In this document: piece by piece, positions 7,171 through 20,000 of the stretch
Position numbering within the stretch: position 1 is the first letter of the stretch
Layout: each line of letters begins with the position of its first letter
Notes under the pieces: model-generated
The model's database searches: none
What the model saw: only the letters and a program-made list of their open reading frames with translations
Told to the model about the DNA's origin: nothing
Position numbers and translations under genes: made by a program
Source: Vermamoeba vermiformis
Taxonomy: Eukaryota
NCBI GenBank assembly: GCA_045837725.1
Contig: JBEWZL010000282.1
Coordinates: 483,230 to 503,229 of the forward strand
Length of the DNA stretch: 20,000 nt
Direction of reading: 5' to 3'

Positions 7171-7341
7171 ATTATTCTATACAATAATAATTTTAAAATT
7201 AAGCTGATGTTGGTAGCACACAGCTTCAGTGTCAAACAAAATCATTTTTAGCACTTTTCTGGAAATTTGTACTTTTAAAACTACAACTAATCTACACAAC
7301 TAGCACTAGCTCACTGACGGATCACAAGCCCTTGGACTCTA

Positions 7342-10300
7342 TCACGTGATAATGTTCATACTCGGAGGCAGAGTACTGGATGACACGGGACAGAAGTTAA
7401 GTGCCACGCTGTCCGTGCACGTGGCCTTGATGTAGACAGGCGAGTTGGAGCCGTCAATGCCCCACACTGTCACACCGTCGCGCGTGTATGGCGGCACGCC
7501 AGACCGCGTCTCGTAGTTCTTGACATTGACGTACAAGTACTGACCACTGAAGTAGAACGAGAACGGCGTGTTGATCAGCGCAGTCATGTTCAGCACTTGG
7601 ACGTACGATCCCTTGTGACCGAAATAGCGGTCTTGATAGGTAATGTTGAACGTCGTGCCCGCAGGATAACTCAGCACAAAATAGGCCTGAGCATTGGGAG
7701 GCACACGAGTAGGCATAAAGCTCCAGCTCTTGGGTGCTCCGTTATTCGGGAACTGAACGAACCAACCTTCGCCGCTAATGCCCGTGGCGGCACTTTGACC
7801 GTACGTGAAGTTTGTGGTCGTTGTTGGACGGCCACACAGAGTGAACGAGCCCATTACATCACCACTCGCACCGGTGTAGTTTGCCACGGAGATACCTACA
7901 TTGATAATTTCACGGCCCTAAACGATGATAAGTCAGTTTAATATTGCCAATAAGACTCATGTGTTGTTCTTACGGGTTTTCTGGGACAGATCCAGGTGCG
8001 CCAGTTCCAGTCGTAGTGACAATCATCACCTCCGTTCCAAATGCCAGCCCAGCTGCCAATAATACCACCGCCACTAACGCCAGTAACTGAACCGTCCCAG
8101 TCTTCAATGTTCGAAGACATGCGTGCAAAGCCCGTGTCACTTTGAACTCTGACGGCGTCATCACAGTCTATGAGGGTACATTTGAACATTAGTCCTTAGT
8201 ACTAGTGAGACTTACCATCAAAGTGAAGGCCACTGACAGCTGAAATTCCTTGATTGAGCGACTGATCGACGTTGTTCAAGACACTCAAACAGTTCGTGTT
8301 CTGATTGATGCTGACACTGTTCACGAATCTCGTGTCATTCTTGTACCCGACGAAGGTCACATTGGACAGAATGGCCACACTCCATTGATCGTACTATCTC
8401 AACGTTAGTAAGTTAAACAACAAATTAAGTGTGACTTACGAATTGGAAGCCTTGTGAGCCTTGAGGTTGACCATAGATGTTCGTCTTGGGATAGCCCAAC
8501 GGATTCTTCGTGATACCAAAGACTGAGTCCTTGCCGAGAGCTGGACCGAAGAGTGTTGCACCACGACCGACATCCCATGACTAGAAGCATCGTTAGTGAC
8601 ACGTGTCAAACATGTCAAAAGTGTTATCGTTACCTCGGAGTTTCGGAACTCGACGGAGTTACCCCAATGATTTGTACCTTGACCACACAACCACGCCTTG
8701 AAGTTGGTGATGTTCAGCGCTGTATCGACGATCTTGCCATCGACCCACTTGCGGGCATTTCTGTTGTCAGCACCTTGGGTGCGGCCTCCGTTGTAAGTCA
8801 GCACGTCATTGCTATCGTACCACAATACTACAAAGAGGTTAACTACATTGTATATAACCTTATTGGCTTAGTCACGTACGTCCTCCCGAATAGAGACAGC
8901 CACCAAAGATCGAGAAGTAGTATCCGGAGGAATGTGCTGTGTTGCCGTCGAACTGAAGTGCTGCTTTGTCCTTTGGTGCAATGGGCATGTACATGCCTTT
9001 GAACTCGCCTGTGGGGACCTTGAAGTGCGGCAGAATGATGCCAGACCATCCTCCTGACGCGGCATTGCCTCGCACGAAGTTCCACATGTTCGAGATGTAG
9101 AAACCTGCTGCTGCCGAGTCAGCGGGCAAGATTCCTGTAAAACCGATTAGCTATTGATTACAATATCGATGTTCGGCGTACTGTCAGGTGTGGCCGGTAA
9201 GTTGGCCATGAACTGACTTCCGCTAGTCGCGAAGTCACCAATGTACGCCACACGAGAGGCAAGATTGAACGAGATTGTGTTGTTCTCTTCGACGCCCTGT
9301 GTTTGTGTTAGTTAAGAGCTAATGACACTAAATGTTGAGCATCTTACGTCTTCGAGGTAGTAGCAGTGACCATGTGTTCTGAACGCGACATTGCGCGACA
9401 CCAACATCTCATGTGTGCCGTGAACTGTAATGCAGCGGAAGTAGCTGTCGTGCACACTGTTGTCTGTAGCATACGAAGTCGAGGAGATGTTCATCAAGTG
9501 GAAATGAATCTAAAAGATACAGTGTCAAAAATGATGACACGTGTCAAAGTGTCATTATATTCAAACTTACAGGATATCGTCCAAGCATGTTGAACTGACC
9601 CATTCTGTTCGTTTCAATGCCCGAAACTCGGCCTTCACCCATCATCATCAGGTGACCGCCGAACATTTCCGTGTCAGAGGCTTCATCGCCACTCAGCTGA
9701 ATGCGACGAGACAGCAAGCCAACTTCGGTCTGATACTCCGCTCCTGCATGATGATAGAAGCGAATGCGACTCGTGAACTGAACAACATTATCTTGGACTG
9801 CTCGCACCGTGAGGACTTCATTCATGTCGTAGAAGTCGTCGTACATGAACGATGTGACCAATAACACTTGTTGACCTGCCTCCCAGTTGACATTTTGTTG
9901 CAAGAACAAGCGATCAGAGCCAGGCATTGCTGGTGCTGCGAGACGACTCCACGAAGGATTGAATTGTTTGCCTGTGATAGAGCGTCAGTCGCATCACAGC
10001 CTTAAAATAGCTGCGTAGGACGTACCGTGAAGTTCAACTACACTGCCTTTGTACGCAACAATGCCTTTGCCTTCAGTTGGAGTTGAGGCCTTGTCACCGA
10101 AGAATGTCAACTTGATGTTCGAGTACAAACGACACGTTGATGAGCCCATTCTGATTTCAATGTTAGCCACTCGTACTATGATTCTGTCTTACAACTGGTT
10201 GTTACCTTATAGCACCATAGACCCAGATAGTTCCGATGTTCAGTTCAATCGGTGCATCTGCAAAGATAAGCTCGCTGCCAGCTGGAACTGTGATCTCTTT

Positions 10301-12711
10301 GTAGGGAAGGACGTTGCTGAAGGAACACGGGGTCACTAGAACTCGGGTGTTTGGAGGAAGCGTCACTGATGAGCCTGGAGCTGGTATTTGATTGTTTGCT
10401 GCAAAAAAGACAAACATTAGTAAGTTGCATCAACGACAAATGGCTAGAAGCTCTTACACCAAGTTGAGGGGTCTTCCCACTTCTTGAGTCCATCTTGAAG
10501 ATGAGGACAGTCTGTGCGAGGATTGGGATCGACACCATTCGGCATCAAAGGAATGTACGCGGCTCTGAACACTTCATTCGAGTACATCGTTGGCTTGGTG
10601 AAGGGCTGCTCGACCAGCTCGAAAGTGATGTCTTTGTAGAAGAACATTCCTGCCCCACCGAAGCTCCCTTGAATGGCAAAGAAAGCACGTGACGCGAGAT
10701 TAGGAGGAGAGAACGTGTAAGTGTAACTGGCCCATTCCGTGGTGATGCCATTGGGTGCAAGGTTGTCTGACGCAACGACGAAGGACGAACCAGAAGGAGC
10801 TGTAGTTTGTGTGTAGTTGCCTGGAGGATACTTGCGGCTCTCAGTGTCGGTCTGTGTGGCGTCAAAGATCTTAAACACACGAACGGTAACATCGGCAGTG
10901 GTGTTGACATTTTCATTCTTTGGATCTTGTTTGATTGAGAAGCTAATCTTGTACGTGCGATCTGGATGAAGAGAGAACGGCAGCAAATACCCAGAATTCA
11001 ATAGAAGCGCGAATGGGTTCGCTGAGTACTTGGGCTTGTACAATGTGATGCCGTTGTCCGTGCGATTGACTTTTAAAGTGACCGCACCCATTGTAATGCC
11101 AATGAATGCTGTCTCGTCGTCGTACTTCTGCACGTAGTTTGGATACGATGATTGAGGATCGAATGATGCCATTGGTGGGGTGAAATCAACAGTTGCAAAG
11201 TCAGTGCAAGTGGCCGTCGGAACATCAAAACGAACAGTCACTGTAGTCTTGGCCTTGAGTGTCATTGAGCCTGAAGTGCCATCGCCGCACACTCCGCTCT
11301 TCGTTTGAGCTGCGTCTGATGTGACTGAGCAGTTGGATGGAAGTTCGACTGAATCTCCGAATGAGATGTCAAACGTTCCTGAAAGCCCATAGCCCTATCA
11401 TATAGTTGTTAATAAAGACTTACATTCTATTAGCGCTCATGTGCTTGAAGACTTACGTCAACAAAAGACAAGAACACGCTGCTTTGAGAGCTTGTGACAC
11501 TTGTCTGAATCTCACTGCCGACACTTATCTTCTCCAACACAACAGAGGACGATGTGGACACAGACAACGATGAGCCTACACTCAACAAGCTCATGCCCAC
11601 AACACCACCGTTGTCTGACTTGATGTTGAGTGACAGATCCCCAGCTGAAAGAAGACCAGAGGTCGATGTGATGCTTCCTTCGTCCAGTTCGACTAGCACC
11701 ACGTTGAAGTGATAGCCAGCAGGATAGCTTAAGATGACCTGAGGGCATTGTTAGTACGGCCACAATGTCATATGCAAGCGAGACATACCTCCAGTTCAAG
11801 ATTATCGGATTGTGCAAAGATAACGGAGATAAGTCCTAATAAACAGTTATTATTATACTAGGTCTTAGTATGCCTTCAAAGTTACTTACCGAAGATCGCA
11901 GCAACCAATAGACCAGTTTTGCGTCGAGAACCGAAAGTTGACAGAAGCAAGGCTGTAGGGACAAGGCTCGCGAGAATAAAAGAGATTTGGTTCGAATGAC
12001 CTCTGCTGATACCGCTAGAGGATACCTGAATATCAATTGTATGTTAGAAACAATTAGGGTGTGATTTAAATAGCCTATTTACAACGTAGCGAGTGTGAAC
12101 CAAACGAAGAAAAAAATTGATCAAATCCGAATCTGGTTCGGAAAGAAAAAACAAGCTCTGAGCGACATTAATGCTTATATATATGTTATAAATGCATCTT
12201 TGGCTTGTAATCATAGCGCAAAAGTTTACGGAGAAGCGAGTGTGAGCACCACACAGATTTTCTGTCACAAATTCGAACTCGAAATTACAAAATCGAAATC
12301 AAACACCTCGTAAATATATTTGTAATACTCTCCAATTACGCATTCTATTAATTAAAGGAAAACAAACCGGCTGGGTTCTTACCTTCAAGTAGATCTCGCC
12401 GTTGGAGCCGTACGACACTATTTCATCCAACGATACGCGTGTATTTGAGTTAATAGTTAATTTAGGTGAACTAACGTCTGCCTGTTGCGTCTTGAAATTA
12501 GCCTGTAGAAAAAACAAAATTAATTACCGCATCCACGTTACTCAATCAACGAGAATAAATCAATCTGCATCGTTATAATACTAACCTTGATGGAAGAAAA
12601 TAAACGGAGGTTATTATCCACGTTGATGTCGCCGACGAAGTCTGCCGCGACAACAAGCGAACAGCACAGAGCAACGAGCACTCCGAATAGTACTCTGTTT
12701 AGCTGCGCCAT
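7342..12711 (-). CDS. Secreted G8-domain / parallel beta-helix protein (TMEM2/CEMIP/fibrocystin-like, Dictyostelium G8-protein type), ~1332 aa
   Basis: Exons 12711-12586, 12502-12383, 11738-11457, (11426-11424?), 11394-10458, 10398-10206, 10150-10026, 9971-9571, 9509-9348, 9296-9182, 9134-8880, 8827-8634, 8580-8440, 8393-8216, 8167-7974, 7917-7342 sum to 3999 nt without the micro-exon and are fully open. Signal peptide MAQLNRVLFGVLVALCCSLVVA; G8 start CPHLQDGLKKWEDPSTW...ELHG; family motifs MGQFNMLGRYPIHFH, HDSYFRCITVHGTH, GHCYYLEDGVEENN, AAGFYISNMWNFVRGNAASGG. The link between the first two exons and the rest, across a 644-nt intron, is less certain. Confidence 0.85.
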
Positions 12712-13276
12712 GTCGATGAATAATCTGCTTGTTGACCGTAGCAGCAAATTGTTGAAATTGAAGTGGCCCAATTGTTTGGCCACTTTTACGTCACAAAAGC
12801 ACGTGGCAATTCACAACTCCTTTTGCTGCAACCAACCGCGAGATCAAAATATTTCCTGCAGAGAGTAACTGTTACAAAATTATATTAAGTGCTTCTCGCT
12901 TTTACTAGCAATTAAAATTCGCTAATTAATTTTCAAAGTAGATTTACCGCATAATAAAAAAAAAAATTGTTGCCACAAGAGATGCTGTTATCTTTTTTTT
13001 TTGCATTAATGCCTCTTTCATATTCCAAAGTACTTTTGTATAATGTCTATAGCTACGCACAGCGTCCTTCAGCTTCAAATATAAAATTATTTAATTACAC
13101 ACTGGACGATTCGAGGTATCATTCAATCATGTCTTATAGCCGTATGAAATGATAAGTAGGGCGACGGAGAAGTGATCGAAAGAAAGAACGAACTAAAACC
13201 GCCAAAAAACTTGGTTCCCGCCCAAAATTAATTTCACTTTTTTAATTTTCAGCAACGCGTCAACACAAACAATCAA

Positions 13277-13390
13277 ATGTCATCGGCTCCAAAAAGAAAA
13301 TATAGTACTAGCCTCGATGATAGTGTTCCCAAGGCCAAAAAAGCAAAGATAGACGAGGACAATAGGCAAATCTGCGCTTCCCGCATTCAA
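13277..13390 (+). pseudogene. 5' fragment (38 codons) of a host gene interrupted by the LTR retrotransposon
   Basis: ATG in an AATCAAATG context gives MSSAPKRKYSTSLDDSVPKAKKAKIDEDNRQICASRIQ, with a bipartite NLS. The frame runs into the LTR at 13391 and stops 7 codons later. Confidence 0.65.
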
Positions 13391-13553
13391 TGTAATGATG
13401 TACTCATACAATAAACGTGAGAACGTCAGCGTGTCAGGTGCGTGGTTAAGCCACGGTAAATCCCGACTTAACGGAAACCTGGCGGGTATAAAAACCCTGC
13501 CAATCTCTTTCCGTCCTGACCTTCTTCACACCCACTACGAGCACTACATTACA
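13391..13553 (+). repeat. 5' LTR (163 bp)
   Basis: TGTAATG...CATTACA, a 7-bp terminal inverted repeat; identical by eye to 19838-20000. Confidence 0.97.
13487..13493 (+). promoter_or_regulatory. Putative LTR TATA box
   Basis: TATAAAA inside the LTR, flanked by the inverted repeat TGGCGGGT/ACCCTGCCA. Confidence 0.5.
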
Positions 13554-13554
13554 T

Positions 13555-13570
13555 TGGTGCGCCTCGCCGG
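13555..13570 (+). other. Primer-binding site (tRNA 3'-end complement; tRNA-Gly-like)
   Basis: TGGTGCGCCTCGCCGG begins 1 nt after the LTR. Its complement ends in ...GCGC-A-CCA, like eukaryotic tRNA-Gly acceptor ends. The tRNA identity is inferred. Confidence 0.75.
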
Positions 13571-13632
13571 TGTTAGAAGTTTTATTTATTTACATAACGT
13601 TTTAAATACATCGCCTGATCTTCGCATCTACA

Positions 13633-15144
13633 ATGAGCGAACTGACCTCCCCAGCGAGAAACACTCGCTCACGCTCCGCTCAAGGTGGTAACACTCAACA
13701 AGAACCGCCCACACGTCAACAGGGCAAGAGTAAACGCAAGACACCAGTTTCCGAGCCAGATCCCCATGCTACTGACAGCGGATCAACTGCAAACGGATCG
13801 TCCTCAGTGGCAACACCACCGTCAACGCCAACACGACAAGGAGACCCAAGCAACACTGCCCAAGGGAACCAAACGCGTGTCGAGGAAACGGCCACAATTC
13901 AGAATATTCCTAATTTGGAAAATTCCGCTGGTTCGCAGACCGCTGCGGGAGTGAGTTCACCTCCTCCCCAAGGGTCTCAAACTTCGTCTGGCACGTCTGT
14001 GGGGTCTTCTACTGATTCTGTTAACGTTACTAGTGTTCGTAATACTGGTGGCAGTAGCGTTAACCGATCAGCGGAACAATCAACCTCGGATCGGCAAGCT
14101 GGAACGACCCAAGGTGTTGTGATTCCCCAGTACCCCACGCCACCTAGTCATAACAATAGTCAAAACGACGATATGAACAAGGCTTACGACCGCGCGCGTA
14201 GATCCGTTACCGAGAGATTTTCACGAGAGACAGCAGATCCTGAAGCGTGGCTCAATTTTATGAGATGGACTGCGTCTACTAACAAACTCGATCATGAGGC
14301 GCGGAAAAAGCTCATCTGGGAGTGTCTCTCCGAGAGCATCCAAAAGATCTACTCCGTCGCTCATGAGGTCCGTAAAAGCTCTTACGATAACATAGTCGAA
14401 TGGTTCGAAGAGTCTTTCGTTGTTAAACGTAGTACTGTCGAAATCATGCGCAATATCGAAGAGTTGACTTGGGATCACGAGCACGTGCCCTTTTCGAGAT
14501 TTTTGATTGACTTCGTTTCTGCCATGGGCCCGTTAGCGAATAATGACTTTCGTCAACGTATGTGGTTACTGCAAGGCAAACTGCCCGGTTACTTGGGTCA
14601 GATGTGCCAAGCGGAATTCTCACGATTTACGTGTTTTGCTGACATGACGTCTTGGGTAAATTCGCATGAAAACTTCAAGTTATATGCAGCCCTGACGCCA
14701 TTGAAGCCCGCTAACAACAATAATCAACCTGTTAATGCTGTGAGCGACACGTTGCAAAACGTGCAGACTGGTGCTTTGAACCCCAATCTTGAAGTCCTCC
14801 AGAAGGTCGACCAGCTCGCTGACAGTATTCAACTAGTTGTCAATGCCCTTAACTCTTATCAGAGAGGTGGACTTCCGCGTAACCGCTACTACGGATCGAG
14901 AGGCGGTCGTGGAAAGAGGGGTGGTCGAGGTGGTTGGTCTAATGACCGTGACCGCTCTCCCAAGTCTCATTACGACTCAAAACGTGGAGACAACCCTGCG
15001 AAGCACCGTTCTGATAATCGCTATGACGGGAAAGGCGATAACCGTCGCGACAGAATGGACGAATCTGACGACTCTGAAACCCAAGAGTCTAAGCGCTCAG
15101 GCTCAAAGCCTAATGCAAATCGCAAGCGCAAAAGAGACGATTGA
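13633..15144 (+). CDS. gag: Retrotransposon Gag (503 aa)
   Basis: ~180-aa S/T/P/Q-rich N-terminus, capsid-like region (ERFSRETADPEAWLNFMRW...SYDNIVEWFEESF), RGG-rich basic C-terminus, no CCHC knuckle; ends at TGA 15142-15144. Confidence 0.9.
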   Translation: MSELTSPARNTRSRSAQGGNTQQEPPTRQQGKSKRKTPVSEPDPHATDSGSTANGSSSVATPPSTPTRQGDPSNTAQGNQTRVEETATIQNIPNLENSAGSQTAAGVSSPPPQGSQTSSGTSVGSSTDSVNVTSVRNTGGSSVNRSAEQSTSDRQAGTTQGVVIPQYPTPPSHNNSQNDDMNKAYDRARRSVTERFSRETADPEAWLNFMRWTASTNKLDHEARKKLIWECLSESIQKIYSVAHEVRKSSYDNIVEWFEESFVVKRSTVEIMRNIEELTWDHEHVPFSRFLIDFVSAMGPLANNDFRQRMWLLQGKLPGYLGQMCQAEFSRFTCFADMTSWVNSHENFKLYAALTPLKPANNNNQPVNAVSDTLQNVQTGALNPNLEVLQKVDQLADSIQLVVNALNSYQRGGLPRNRYYGSRGGRGKRGGRGGWSNDRDRSPKSHYDSKRGDNPAKHRSDNRYDGKGDNRRDRMDESDDSETQESKRSGSKPNANRKRKRDD

Positions 15145-18100
15145 CGAGAGGACGAGACCTCTAGCGTCTCTCAACCTGAACCTAACGTGGTGGCTACCGT
15201 TCATTTGCCCAAAGGCAGCGCCGAACCCCCTGTCTTCGCGTCTGTCTGTGTGAATGGTCATCAAGTGCCCAAAGCTCTGTTGGACACTGGTGCCGCTGTA
15301 ACCATCGTTAATAAAGGTTTTGTTGACTCTTTAGGCTTGTCAATTACTCCTTGTGAGCGTAGCGAGATCGTCGTAGCGAACGACGAACGAATGGCGGTGG
15401 ATGGTTACGCGCACATCGCTATTCAAATAGCTAAGACCCCTGTTCGAGTTCATGCCTTATATGTTCCTAACATCGCATATGGACTTATTATTGGCACGAA
15501 TGTGTTAAAAGCTAGTGGTGTCAAAGTCATGTGCGGAGGCAAGCAGTTGTGGCCACCGTTATCACCCAACGGTGAAAGCCAAAGCAACGCCAATTGCGCG
15601 TTTGTACACAAGGACACAAGGTGTCTTATTAACGCTAACGAGTCGGTTTCAATTCCTCCACTATGCGGCATGAGCGTACGTGGAAGGATGCGTGGCAAAC
15701 AGCTCGATGGAGACGTCCTTATCGAGCCAACCAAGCGCACAATAACAGACGGCAACGTTGCTAGGCAACTACGCAACGCCAAAGACGGTCTTGTCGATGT
15801 TTTCATTACAAACAGCTCTTATAACCAGAGACTGTATATCGCCAAGGACTCGCCGATTGCATTTGCATACGACGATGTTTCCTTTTGGTGCGATGAACAA
15901 GGGATAGTCTTAACGATAAATATCCTTAATAATAGAGTCCTAGATGATAATAGTCTGCTCGCGCAAGTAAGCGATGACTCCGCTGAGCATGCCTCGGTCG
16001 AAAATTCTGCTGACGAAAAGGAGAAACGTGTAAACCGCAGAGCAAGACGCGCGTTAGAGAAGCTCGATGGCAAGGCTGAGAGAGTGTATTCCGGCAGAAA
16101 ACCTCGAAAGAAACGTCGTGGCGACGGATTCGTTGAGGTCAATGTCGTGAACTCTTCGAAGTCAGAGCTCTCTAATGAAAAAACAGACGGATGTGACATT
16201 GATCCTAATTTGCCATCCAATTATAAACAATCGTTGCTTAAGCTACTCGACAAGTACTCAGATCTCTGGACCGTTAGTGTGCACACCACAACTCCGCTCG
16301 TTAAGCACCCTATTACAACCTTCGGCGAACCGAAGAAACAATACCCTTATCGCTTAGCTTATTCAGAGAAACCTTTTGTTGAAAAATACATTACGGACTC
16401 TTTAGCAAGCGGAATAATTAGACCATCGAATTCTCCGTGGTCAAGTCCAATTCTTCTCGTTAAGAAAAAGGACGGTACGAAACGTTTTTGCGTTGATTAT
16501 CGACAATTGAACGCAGTCACCAAAAAGGATGTTCATCCTATTCCCAGAGTCGAAGATGTGCTGGAACGACTTGACGGGATGCGTTACTTCACGACTCTAG
16601 ATCTCGTTCAGTCTTACTATCAGATCGAAGTCGAAGAGCGTGATAAGGAAAAGACTGCATTCATTACTGATCAAGGCTCATTTGAATATAATGTTATGCC
16701 TTTCGGTTTGACGAACGCTCCGTCGACATTTCAGAGACTCATGAACTTAGTACTCGCCGGTTTGAACTGGCAGATGTGCCTCGTTTATATCGATGATATT
16801 TTGATATTTTCGAAGACATTTGAAGAGCACTTAGATCATTTAGAATTAGTCTTCGATCGTCTTCGTACAGCGAATCTAAAACTCAAACTGTCGAAATGCA
16901 AATTCGCGTATCCAACAACGATATACTTAGGACATTGTATTGGTGCGAATGGTGTCTCACCTGATCCGGCCAAACTTGAGGCTATTAAGCGAATTGACCC
17001 GTCAACTTGGAAAAGTGTCACGGATGTCAAGTCCTTTTTAGGAATGACCGGATATTATCGGAGATTTGTTAAAGATTACGCTACAATAGCGAAAGACTTG
17101 ACAGAAATGCTCCGCAAAGACGTAGATTTCAAAATGTCGCGTAGACGCGTTCGATCTGCTAAGCGTCTACGAGATGCGTTGTGCACTGCACCCATTCTCG
17201 CTTATCCAAAGTGGGAATTGCCATTCATCGTTCAGGTGGATGCAAGCAACATCGGGATGGGAGGAGTGTTAACGCAGATCCACCCAAAGACTGGTGAACA
17301 CCCGGTCGCGTATTTCTCGCGTAAATTTACGCCTTCTGAACAAAAGTACGCAGTGATGGAACGAGAGTGTTTAGCGATGGTGGAATCTATCAAATACTTT
17401 AGACCGTATATTTATGGTCAGAAGTTTACGGTAGTGACAGATCATAAACCTCTCGAACACATCCACTCTTTTAAGTCGCATAACGGAAGAGTAGCGCGTT
17501 GGGATATGGCACTAGCTGATTATAACTTTCAAGTTATAGCTAGACCTGGCAAAGATAACGCGAACGCGGATGCATTATCCCGTTTGTTTGTCAGTACGGT
17601 GTCAATGTATACCAAATCAAAGTCAATCGACGACATTTCACCCGAATATCTCAACACTCGCAATCCTGAAGTAATGCGCGCTAAACAGCTCGAAGACCCA
17701 AAGCTAAGTACTATTATGCAATATTTAGAGAATGATATCGCACCCGATGACCCGAGAGAAAGAGCAATCTTAATTAAGGAATCGGATCAATATTATATTA
17801 AAAAGGGCGTTTTATATCATTTATTTTGGCCTAGTCGCAAGCGTAAATTTACTTCGCGACTTCGCCTGGCAATTCCAGAATCAATGCACAATGATATTTT
17901 GACAGCTTATCACAATGATCCGCTCGGAGCCCATCAAGGTATTCAACGCACCTTTGAGCTCATCTCATCGAAGTACTATTGGCCTGGTCTCTACCGAAGT
18001 GTCAACGACCATGTCAGAAATTGCATCAAGTGCATCGCCAAGAAAACTCCGCGTCTCAAGAAAGCTGGATTAATGCAACCGATCCGTGTCTCAGAACGAA

Positions 18101-19689
18101 TGGAGACTATGGGAGTTGATATTCTCGGTCCTTTACCAATGTCAAAAGGGAAGTACCGATACATCCTTGTTTTCAGCGATTATTTTACAAAATACCCTGT
18201 CTGCGTGCCCACGCGTGACATAGAAGCACCTACTATTGCTAGAGCTATGATTGATCACGTATTTCTCGAATTAGGATTTCCTCGTAAACTGGTCTCAGAT
18301 CGCGGTTCACAATTCCTCAGTGACATCGTCCAAGAAATCTGTCATCAACTCAAGATCGACAAAGTTCAGTCTACAGCGTATCACCCTCAGACCGACGGTC
18401 TCGTCGAACGGTTTAATCACACGTTGTGTGTTATGCTGTCGATGTACTGTCACGACAACAACGCTGATTGGGCTAAATACCTCAAATACGTCGTGCACGC
18501 GTACCGGTGCACTCCTCATCCTTCTACTGGTGTTACACCGTATGAAGCGCTGAATTTCAGGATTCCGAATTCGCTGATGGATGTGCAATTACCCGTCGCG
18601 TCACATGTCAAGGCTCGAAAGGCGCAAGATTTGTTAAAAGAACTCGCTTTTGGTCACGACTTGATGACTAAGCAAATTAGACAGCGTATTCTCGACGCTC
18701 AAGAATACCAAGCCGACTTCTACAACAGAAATCGCCGCAACGTACACTACAAGGTTGGCCAACGAGTTTGGTTCTTCTGGCCTATGCGTAATGCATACAA
18801 CCAAGTCACTAAGCTCAGTCTCCCGTGGTCTGGCCCCTACTTCATCGCCAAACAGAAATCAGCGGTGACGTATCGCCTGATGAAGCCTGATGGATCCCTA
18901 TTTAAGCAAGTAGTTCACGTTGATCGTTTAAAACCGTGCACGTCTACGAATGATATTCCTACAGAATTCGTCTCTCTGCACGCCAACGACAGTTTCGACC
19001 CCGAGATCGAGACATCCGATCGCGAACCCACCTACACACCCGTCATTATCGACAAAATTCCAACTACTCAAATAGTTGTACCTGAATATAATGACGATAC
19101 CATCCAACATGATCATGAAGAGGAGCCTGAAAGCGAATCTCCCGAGATCAGATCTGTTTTGGATTTATTACACGAAGAGTACTACACTCTTCGCCGTAAG
19201 TTCGAATTTAGCCGTGAAATTAAAGGCAAACAAAGACGTAATTTTAAGAGCAAAATTAAAACACTTTGGCGGAAAATTGCAAAACTCGAATCCGATCCAA
19301 AATTAGATCGTACTAAATTTAACGACGATAATAAGGACAATTTACAGTCTAACGAATTTAAGACAATTCCTTTTAAAGAGAGAACCGAAGATTTTATACA
19401 ACCTTTCGTTCTTAAAGAATTGTTTAAAGCGCTAGTTGATCTATATTTAGCGTATCGAGACAAACAATTATCGGAAAAATTCAAATTCTCGAGTGTACGC
19501 ACAGAATTACGTGATTTATTTAGGATGCCACACATCCCAGACACGAAGCGACAACAATTTTTCCGTAGCCAGATCAAACTGATCAACTCCAAGGACGCCT
19601 TGCTGGATTTCCTGCACGACTGCCTTTCGCGCTTTGTCCAAGTCTTCGCTCACGAGATCGTCGCCATTCAACAGAAGAGCTCTCAGTAG
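15145..19689 (+). CDS. pol: Retrotransposon Pol polyprotein (PR-RT-RNase H-IN plus C-terminal extension), in frame with gag
   Basis: Open from the codon after the gag stop; the ORF track starts it at GTG 15187. PR LLDTGA (D at 15283); RT YIDD 16786-16797; RNase H VDAS at 17239; IN HHCC 17911-18033, D 18118, D 18298, E 18406; GPY motif at 18832. Confidence 0.96.
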   Translation, partial: REDETSSVSQPEPNVVATVHLPKGSAEPPVFASVCVNGHQVPKALLDTGAAVTIVNKGFVDSLGLSITPCERSEIVVANDERMAVDGYAHIAIQIAKTPVRVHALYVPNIAYGLIIGTNVLKASGVKVMCGGKQLWPPLSPNGESQSNANCAFVHKDTRCLINANESVSIPPLCGMSVRGRMRGKQLDGDVLIEPTKRTITDGNVARQLRNAKDGLVDVFITNSSYNQRLYIAKDSPIAFAYDDVSFWCDEQGIVLTINILNNRVLDDNSLLAQVSDDSAEHASVENSADEKEKRVNRRARRALEKLDGKAERVYSGRKPRKKRRGDGFVEVNVVNSSKSELSNEKTDGCDIDPNLPSNYKQSLLKLLDKYSDLWTVSVHTTTPLVKHPITTFGEPKKQYPYRLAYSEKPFVEKYITDSLASGIIRPSNSPWSSPILLVKKKDGTKRFCVDYRQLNAVTKKDVHPIPRVEDVLERLDGMRYFTTLDLVQSYYQIEVEERDKEKTAFITDQGSFEYNVMPFGLTNAPSTFQRLMNLVLAGLNWQMCLVYIDDILIFSKTFEEHLDHLELVFDRLRTANLKLKLSKCKFAYPTTIYLGHCIGANGVSPDPAKLEAIKRIDPSTWKSVTDVKSFLGMTGYYRRFVKDYATIAKDLTEMLRKDVDFKMSRRRVRSAKRLRDALCTAPILAYPKWELPFIVQVDASNIGMGGVLTQIHPKTGEHPVAYFSRKFTPSEQKYAVMERECLAMVESIKYFRPYIYGQKFTVVTDHKPLEHIHSFKSHNGRVARWDMALADYNFQVIARPGKDNANADALSRLFVSTVSMYTKSKSIDDISPEYLNTRNPEVMRAKQLEDPKLSTIMQYLENDIAPDDPRERAILIKESDQYYIKKGVLYHLFWPSRKRKFTSRLRLAIPESMHNDILTAYHNDPLGAHQGIQRTFELISSKYYWPGLYRSVNDHVRNCIKCIAKKTPRLKKAGLMQPIRVSERMETMGVDILGPLPMSKGKYRYILVFSDYFTKYPVCVPTRDIEAPTIARAMIDHVFLELGFPRKLVSDRGSQFLSDIVQEICHQLKIDKVQSTAYHPQTDGLVERFNHTLCVMLSMYCHDNNADWAKYLKYVVHAYRCTPHPSTGVTPYEALNFRIPNSLMDVQLPVASHVKARKAQDLLKELAFGHDLMTKQIRQRILDAQEYQADFYNRNRRNVHYKVGQRVWFFWPMRNAYNQVTKLSLPWSGPYFIAKQKSAVTYRLMKPDGSLFKQVVHVDRLKPCTSTNDIPTEFVSLHANDSFDPEIETSDREPTYTPVIIDKIPTTQIVVPEYNDDTIQHDHEEEPESESPEIRSVLDLLHEEYYTLRRKFEFSREIKGKQRRNFKSKIKTLWRKIAKLESDPKLDRTKFNDDNKDNLQSNEFKTIPFKERTEDFIQPFVLKELFKALVDLYLAYRDKQLSEKFKFSSVRTELRDLFRMPHIPDTKRQQFFRSQIKLINSKDALLDFLHDCLSRFVQVFAHEIVAIQQKSSQ

Positions 19690-19825
19690 CCTGTGCCGAG
19701 TCTGCATTGCCGCCACATCAACGTCAAATCAATCAATCAACACGATATATTTAAAACGTATTAGTTTATTTACTAGTACAAACTACATCTTACATACACT
19801 TCGGGAGAAGTGCTCTCTTTTCTTT

Positions 19826-19837
19826 AGGAGGGAGGAA
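19826..19837 (+). other. Polypurine tract
   Basis: AGGAGGGAGGAA directly abutting the 3' LTR. Confidence 0.9.
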
Positions 19838-20000
19838 TGTAATGATGTACTCATACAATAAACGTGAGAACGTCAGCGTGTCAGGTGCGTGGTTAAGCCA
19901 CGGTAAATCCCGACTTAACGGAAACCTGGCGGGTATAAAAACCCTGCCAATCTCTTTCCGTCCTGACCTTCTTCACACCCACTACGAGCACTACATTACA
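19838..20000 (+). repeat. 3' LTR (163 bp)
   Basis: Identical copy of 13391-13553; ends in CATTACA at the last base of the window. Confidence 0.97.

Follow-up and report, generated by a model that had tools for sequence, protein, structure and literature searches.

Readthrough of an in-frame stop that separates gag from pol is already known as a strategy of retrotransposons. The closest described cases are the fission-yeast Ty3/gypsy elements Tj1, Tcry1 and Tosmo1-3, in which an in-frame GAA-TGA-CT lies between the two genes, pol has no AUG of its own and readthrough has been proposed (10.1101/2022.12.06.519325); transposition of Tj1 requires the gag stop (PMC4600332). In Tca2 of Candida albicans, gag and pol are joined in frame by UGA; its predicted local pseudoknot failed to direct readthrough in yeast, and suspicion fell on remote elements (PMC2194720). 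The bypass of an in-frame gag stop in retrotransposons is thus unsettled, since the local junction of Tca2 failed and the accounts of Tj1 and Tosmo, in their accessible parts, point to sequence context only. Here we describe an intact long terminal repeat (LTR) retrotransposon of the Ty3/gypsy type at positions 13391-20000 of the window, the whole analysed stretch of 20,000 nucleotides from Vermamoeba vermiformis (contig C282 of the 43-Mb host assembly G000). The best overall explanation of its gag-pol junction, with a probability of about 0.8, is readthrough of the gag UGA into pol, supported by a UGA-C context and a long-range stem, in an intact tRNA-Arg-primed element of the non-chromodomain kind.

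Long-range structures of this kind are known from the type II readthrough signals of alphaviruses, tobra- and furoviruses, a coltivirus and Drosophila kelch (Firth et al. 2011, PMC3159437). These signals consist of UGA followed by CUA or CGG and a stem that starts ~7-12 nt past the stop, has at least 10-14 bp and encloses a loop of 100-270 nt in coding sequence; in VEEV (Venezuelan equine encephalitis virus) and SINV (Sindbis virus) the long stem raised readthrough 3- to 14-fold (PMC3159437). In murine leukaemia virus (MuLV) the junction reads Asp-Asp-UAG (PMC13517186, Table 1). No retrotransposon with an extended stem-loop readthrough signal was found in the open-access literature, including the accessible text of PMC5009743 and PMC13517186, most subscription papers and supplements lying outside the search; within that scope, the long-range stem design would be the new part.

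The present element shares with Tj1, Tcry1 and Tosmo the Ty3/gypsy domain order, a single in-frame TGA-C between gag and pol and a pol without AUG. However, those elements are of the Tf1/sushi group, with self-priming in Tj1, whereas here a tRNA-Arg primer site is present and the nearest non-stop relative uses -1 slippage; their octamer GAA-TGA-CT contrasts with GAT-TGA-CG, and a stem is predicted here, whereas the accessible parts of their reports describe no downstream structure. With the type II signals it has in common CUA/CGG-like triplets after UGA, a predicted long-range stem, synonymous-site conservation and compensatory changes. The differences are that type II signals occur in RNA viruses or a cellular gene and not in a retroelement with a predicted stem, that the spacer is 6 nt in the window's family (family A) and 7-8 nt in the others, and that the triplets include CUC and CGA. 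MuLV also has an in-frame stop between gag and protease, and Asp-Asp directly precedes the stop in family A and in a related host family, B; in contrast to the UAG-G and compact pseudoknot after an 8-nt spacer of MuLV, UGA-C and no conserved pseudoknot were found here. Tca2 differs in its copia-type order of protease, integrase and reverse transcriptase (PR-IN-RT), whereas the order here, with RNase H (RH), is PR-RT-RH-IN. The element thus appears to resemble Tj1 and Tosmo at the stop and the alphavirus and tobravirus type II signals in structure.

Leng et al. 1998 is reportedly the paper on Skipper, which the sequence-only reading had named, together with Tca2, as a precedent. The Schizosaccharomyces osmophilus preprint cites Leng et al. 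1998 as a readthrough case (10.1101/2022.12.06.519325). As Ty3/gypsy elements, Tj1, Tosmo1-3 and Tcry1 are closer precedents than those named there. Skipper-1 and DGLT-A of Dictyostelium are also Ty3/gypsy elements of small eukaryote genomes; Skipper carries a chromodomain and, where a primer site would be, a polypyrimidine tract, and DGLT-A consists of one open reading frame (ORF) (PMC5006619, PMC5633606), whereas the present element has no chromodomain match, has a TGG primer site, and has gag and pol parted by TGA. By primer and context it falls outside both the Tj1/Tosmo and the Skipper family, the RT tree containing no Tf1/Tj1 references. The features at the junction are as follows.

13633..15144, + strand: gag ORF including the stop, 503 amino acids (coding to 15141), ending KRKRDD-stop, with an RGG-rich end and no zinc knuckle
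15142..15147, + strand: in-frame TGA then CGA, a type II-like readthrough context; relatives carry TGA-CTC, TGA-CTA or TGA-CGG
15145-19686, + strand, with TAG ending at 19689: pol ORF, 1514 amino acids, in the same frame as gag
15241..15510, + strand: aspartic protease (PF13975, E 4e-9), catalytic Asp codon at 15283-15285

As the sequence-only reading had stated, gag and pol occupy one frame parted by a single TGA. This codon (15142-15144) was the sole internal stop in 2019 gag-pol codons, the final TAG counted, among which 23 TGG were present. No in-frame ATG was found between the TGA and the catalytic Asp, also as claimed: the Asp is pol codon 47 and the first in-frame Met is pol codon 83. 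The LTRs at 13391-13553 and 19838-20000, likewise described as identical, matched at 100%; with the 3' LTR at the contig end, assembly could account for part of this identity.

To compare other copies and families, the host genome was searched with the RT, giving 43 matches, of which 31 stretches were taken. A second family A copy (contig C281, different flank, 98.8% identical) kept TGA-CGA, with 46 codons changed synonymously and 17 non-synonymously. Family B (72% RT identity, three copies, two of which share a flank) reads KRKRDD-TGA-CTC with open gag and pol ORFs. Family C (L043, G000:C151; 71% RT identity) has TGA-CTC at the matching place and a stem at the expected place; its gag frame is broken ~30 codons upstream of the TGA, and neither a second copy nor a clear target-site duplication was found for it. 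A metagenome scan, from which 78 loci were kept, added four close loci spanning the junction. Three of these have TGA-C there: the intact L070 and degenerate L071 with TGA-CTAG, and L069, degenerate and nearest to the window among the four, with TGA-CGG; L069 and L070 come from the same metagenome. Viral contigs yielded no locus and then three distant ones, and prokaryote genome contigs yielded 13 distant loci. The intact TGA families A, B and L070 share ~50% pol identity and each is otherwise open, so that the claim that the TGA is not a random nonsense mutation was borne out by its recurrence at the same position. The triplet after TGA is exactly type II in L070 and L071 (CUA) and L069 (CGG); the window (CGA) and families B and C (CUC) deviate from it by a single base. 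A C follows the TGA in all six lineages, which are related to one another, while C makes up 20% of first codon positions. That the stop is conserved across families, a check named beforehand, and with it the C that follows, argues well for programmed readthrough.

The single sense codon at this position was the AGA of L075, which is followed by a later frame break. In this locus (L075:1580-1714) the AGA stands at the relatives' TGA, the long-range pairing is retained and the frame break lies inside the protease start; L075 is either a broken copy or a lineage changing strategy. Two gag relatives of L075, P0125 and P0141, terminate at the matching position. A gag profile search gave 21 matches at E<=1e-10, the longest of at most 585 amino acids, and ten pol matches of at least 52% identity were all at most 1455 amino acids long, although fusions of up to 2650 amino acids were searchable; some of these matches lie on short contigs.

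A -1 offset with a slippery heptamer was found in 11 of the 11 other overlapping host families tabulated (G GAA AAC in five), and L059 and L060 are single ORFs; L045, L053 and fragments were left unclassified. Three Ty3/gypsy strategies, -1 slippage, single ORF and TGA stop, therefore occur within one 43-Mb genome (L044-L065, G000). In a quick RT-RNase H tree of 60 rows without bootstrap, P0096 being left out as too short, the TGA elements formed one group with an SH-like approximate likelihood-ratio (SH-aLRT) support of 93. Their sister is the L075 group (joint support 100), and next to these comes the -1 family L044 (100).

The long-range stems of PMC3159437 prompted a search for distant partners of positions +7 to +30 after the stop. 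The predicted structures, together with the local one proposed by the sequence-only reading, are listed here.

15151..15160, + strand: 5' arm of the predicted basal helix, pairing with 15333-15341 over 9 bp with one bulge, after a 6-nt spacer; dependent on the fold window
15171..15194, + strand: 5' arm of the predicted upper helices, pairing with 15295-15326 in five of six fold windows, in a varying register
15295..15341, + strand: 3' arm of the stem inside the protease coding sequence; 15307-15333 is the synonymous-conservation peak of pol
15146..15172, + strand: local hairpin or pseudoknot, able to pair but not conserved

In the stem layout shared by the relatives, the 5' arm begins 6-8 nt past the stop, and the protease gene carries the 3' arm, 150-200 nt downstream. 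In a free partner search, B, L070 and L071 yielded duplexes of -27 to -33 kcal/mol, unmatched by any of 300 synonymous recodings, and family C reached p 0.02. The partners fell at a shared place, 35-60 nt past the protease catalytic Asp codon. With a fixed 3' window, synonymous recodings matched the native duplex in 1/1000 cases each for B, L070 and L071, 19/1000 for the window's family and 44/1000 for C. When the same geometry was slid along pol, an equal duplex occurred in none of 117-118 windows for B, L070 and L071, in one for C and in three for the window. Among 15 non-TGA rows only L075 scored (z -2.9), the other 14, with frameshift, single-ORF or unclassified strategies, ranging from -1.7 to +1.9. 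The UCAAC/GUUGA pairing of the upper helices is common to the window, family B and L070.

Covariation and codon conservation both point to this stem. In a MAFFT alignment of seven sequences (two near-duplicates, and family C misaligned in the 5' arm), a 22-pair register showed changes on both sides in 12 cells over seven pairs, a result reached in 0/500 shuffles, and one pair position is A-U, C-G or U-A across relatives. Slid registers gave 1-3 cells, a control flattered by the structure having been derived from the same sequences. RNAalifold found eight basal pairs unaided, four with compensatory changes. Among 1296 nine-codon windows in pol of the four intact families, the top synonymous-conservation window was codons 55-63 (15307-15333), the stem 3' arm, with 31 of 38 codons identical compared with 38.5% overall in pol. 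In A, B, L070 and L071 the spacer between stop and stem base is 6-8 nt long, while the stop-to-Asp distance spans 133-154 nt. A long-range stem with covariation and synonymous conservation thus characterises the clade; three relatives have it in strong form, family B the strongest, and one in intermediate form, and it is weaker and dependent on the fold in the family of the window, where, with its 6-nt spacer, it would be a marginal case.

Several results weigh against readthrough helped by this stem. The window's family has the least convincing stem of the intact families: its free partner search was not significant (p 0.09 and 0.13), and in a looser cross-family control its z of -1.7 equalled that of the frameshift families L046 and L050. 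Long-range pairs were kept across fold stretches in numbers of 18-20 for B, L070 and L071 and 12-16 for C, and of 0.4-16 for the window. The basal region took three forms in two of six fold windows each, namely the conserved long-range helix, stem 1 of the sequence-only reading and a GAGAC/GUCUC hairpin at +10; folding from the stop to 15381 gave the long-range base P 0.91 and the local hairpin P 0, but the long-range base fell to P 0.01 when 15000-15500 was folded or the first 9 nt were masked. The degenerate L069 was not significant in either test (p 0.52 and 132/1000), L075 scores despite its AGA, and the fixed 3'-arm window was picked after the free search. RNAalifold missed the stem on a protein-guided alignment because the 5' arms were out of register. 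The comparison covers six lineages, three of them close; furthermore, the similar-looking junction of Tca2 by itself was insufficient for readthrough in yeast (PMC2194720).

The main rival, possible but in our judgement unlikely, is readthrough by the UGA-C context alone, with a stem that shields the long 3' region of the Gag mRNA from decay, serves packaging or dimerisation, or has partly decayed in the window's family. The weak, fold-dependent basal helix of this family, the retention of pairing without a stop in L075 and a downstream structure without stimulatory effect in PSIV (PMC13517186) would all fit, whereas the steady distance of the stem base from the stop under a varying distance to the Asp, and the absent or marginal stem in the 14 other frameshift, single-ORF and unclassified rows, argue against this rival. 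The sequence-only reading had instead proposed a local hairpin or H-type pseudoknot at 15146-15172, in the manner of MuLV. Every pair of it can indeed form (all eight of the hairpin, at -8.5 kcal/mol, and all five and all four of the two pseudoknot stems), stem 1 reached P 0.76-0.88 in two of six fold windows, the GAGAC/GUCUC hairpin from +10 reached P ~1 with the first 8 nt masked, and the stop plus 36 nt folds mildly stably in several families (p 0.018 against synonymous recoding in B, 0.06-0.35 in the others). Its stability, however, was no better than that of shuffles (15145-15175, z = -0.58, 49/200 as good; z -0.6 to +0.9 over five local windows), and it was not conserved in register: gap-free transfer to five other families kept 3-5 of 8 hairpin pairs, 1-4 of 5 pairs of pseudoknot stem 1 and 0-2 of 4 of stem 2. 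Stimulators tested by experiment have a spacer of at least 8 nt after the stop, ~8 or more nt occupying the mRNA channel (PMC13517186, PMC3159437); the local hairpin and pseudoknot would be placed inside this channel, because they start only 2-3 nt after the stop. Its bases also form the 5' arm of the covarying long-range helix, and a conserved MuLV-type pseudoknot after an 8-nt spacer was not found, the proposed stems beginning at +3 after UGA-C. A local stimulator is therefore improbable, and the sequence-only reading was probably right on the strategy and wrong on the structure. A hairpin that takes in the stop codon was a further candidate, seen repeatedly among the families with z from -0.6 to -1.9; it was rejected, only B being significant against synonymous recoding, and its bases are shared with the long-range stem.

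Pol might also be made without readthrough, from an intron removing the stop or from a spliced or internally started pol mRNA, as in copia or foamy viruses. Near-cognate GTG, TTG and CTG codons do lie in frame upstream of the protease Asp, and Tca2 had a cryptic junction promoter (PMC2194720). Nevertheless, simple patterns gave no donor-like site in the upstream 150 nt of A, B, L070 and L071, YAG sites lie at non-matching positions, there is no in-frame ATG, and splicing would leave the invariant UGA-C and the stem unexplained, which makes this origin of pol quite doubtful. The idea that UGA is a sense codon in the host (Trp or Cys) or encodes selenocysteine is very unlikely. Histone genes mostly terminate in TAA and are uninformative on TGA, so kinases were used: 30 host kinase domains contained 109 TGG and no TGA in 7408 codons, and TGA was the next in-frame stop in eight of the 30, some possibly intronic. 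UGA is thus a true stop under the standard code in this host, and reassignment is refuted. A tRNA-Sec gene is present (L175:1500-1587, G000:C184); however, Rfam gave no selenocysteine insertion sequence (SECIS) family match in 13300-20000 at E<=5, and nothing else credible, and the linker that contains the stop is unconserved. A nonsense mutation, for example by deamination of CGA to TGA, or an assembly error could invoke the many premature TGA of the degenerate L069 and L071 and the sense codon of L075, but it is already refuted by the same-position stop in the intact, otherwise open A, B and L070; the matching gag ends of P0125 and P0141 also speak against it.

Under readthrough with the long-range stem, the UGA would halt most ribosomes on the genomic RNA and release Gag, while in a few percent of them, a rate suggested by analogy, a near-cognate tRNA would insert an amino acid at the UGA and translation would run on through PR-RT-RH-IN to give a Gag-Pol fusion. 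The leakiness would come from the UGA-C(UA/UC/GG/GA) context plus the extended stem-loop, its base at the ribosome mRNA entrance 6-8 nt past the stop and its 3' arm in the protease gene. From the comparisons above, readthrough at the UGA is highly probable and, given readthrough, stimulation by the stem is likely. We lean slightly towards a history in which, independently of Tj1/Tosmo and gammaretroviruses, one Ty3/gypsy lineage replaced -1 frameshifting by UGA readthrough and evolved an alphavirus-type stem whose far arm lies just behind the protease catalytic motif.

If true, this would be a retrotransposon case of the type II extended stem-loop signal, in a host genome with frameshift, single-ORF and readthrough families side by side, and a case of convergence between retrotransposons and alphavirus-like viruses. 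The comparisons single out one particular remote element, whose base pairs can be disrupted and re-formed. Short junction constructs are predicted to give false negatives; a reporter over 15140-15220 would omit the 3' arm, which extends to ~15341. Other retroelements may likewise carry long-range stems downstream of their gag stop.

Three RNA runs labelled as the same species (X15-X17), each read to about half, gave 21-23 reads each, nearly all partial; the junction bin received none of them and the adjacent host gene hardly any. The DNA run X4 gave no coverage of the junction. They appear to come from another strain, hence uninformative on the junction. A few of the partial reads, at window 18985-19309, come from a diverged relative of the element's 3' end, and a related family may be transcribed in that strain.

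The remaining features complete an intact Ty3/gypsy element with the Pfam domain order PR-RT-RH-IN.

13391..13553, + strand: 5' LTR, 163 nt, TGTA...TACA, a direct repeat 100% identical to the 3' LTR
13555..13563, + strand: primer-binding site, a 9-nt match complementary to the 3' end of host tRNA-Arg(ACG)
16459..16935, + strand: reverse transcriptase (PF00078, E 1.2e-35)
17215..17523, + strand: RNase H (PF17917, E 2.8e-37)
17872..18936, + strand: integrase with zinc finger, core and C-terminal module (PF17921, PF00665, PF22938)
19826..19837, + strand: polypurine tract, read from the sequence; families B and C have a similar tract
19838..20000, + strand: 3' LTR, reaching the contig end, from direct repeat comparison

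The family B primer site matches tRNA-Arg(ACG) over 13 nt, the tRNA genes having been located in G000. No chromodomain match was found in the window pol by Pfam. The target-site duplication of the window copy is unreadable, its 3' LTR ending on the contig end, and the second family A copy likewise ends at a contig end; a 4-bp duplication is present at the family B copy B1 and none was seen at the family C copy C1. The window gag gave no Pfam match and is alignable with the family B gag, which has zf-CCHC. The RGG-rich stretch of the family A gag (window 14860-14950) occupies the place of the CCHC zinc knuckle in family B and L070. The basic-acidic gag tail KRKRDD (window 15124-15141) resembles motifs at or near the gag end of family B, of L070 and L071 and of six more protein clusters, the last with KR-K/R-R-D/E or KRRFD; it may act as a nuclear localisation signal or influence termination.

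Further observations concern other loci. In L091:1300-1312, a distant Ty3/gypsy element on a metagenome contig, gag and pol share one frame, broken by a single TAG with CAA-ACA after it, which is similar to the leaky type I context (UAG-CAR); as a single copy, this TAG may be a nonsense mutation. At L051:1-2900 (G000:C56), adjoining a Ty3/gypsy copy, an RT/RNase H ORF is followed by an overlapping ORF that resembles a tyrosine recombinase by eye, with no Pfam match, and this retroelement looks DIRS-like. Upstream of the element in the window, a large multi-exon host gene (~7340-12810, minus strand) carries CEMIP/TMEM2-like beta-helix matches and a weak carbohydrate-binding module.

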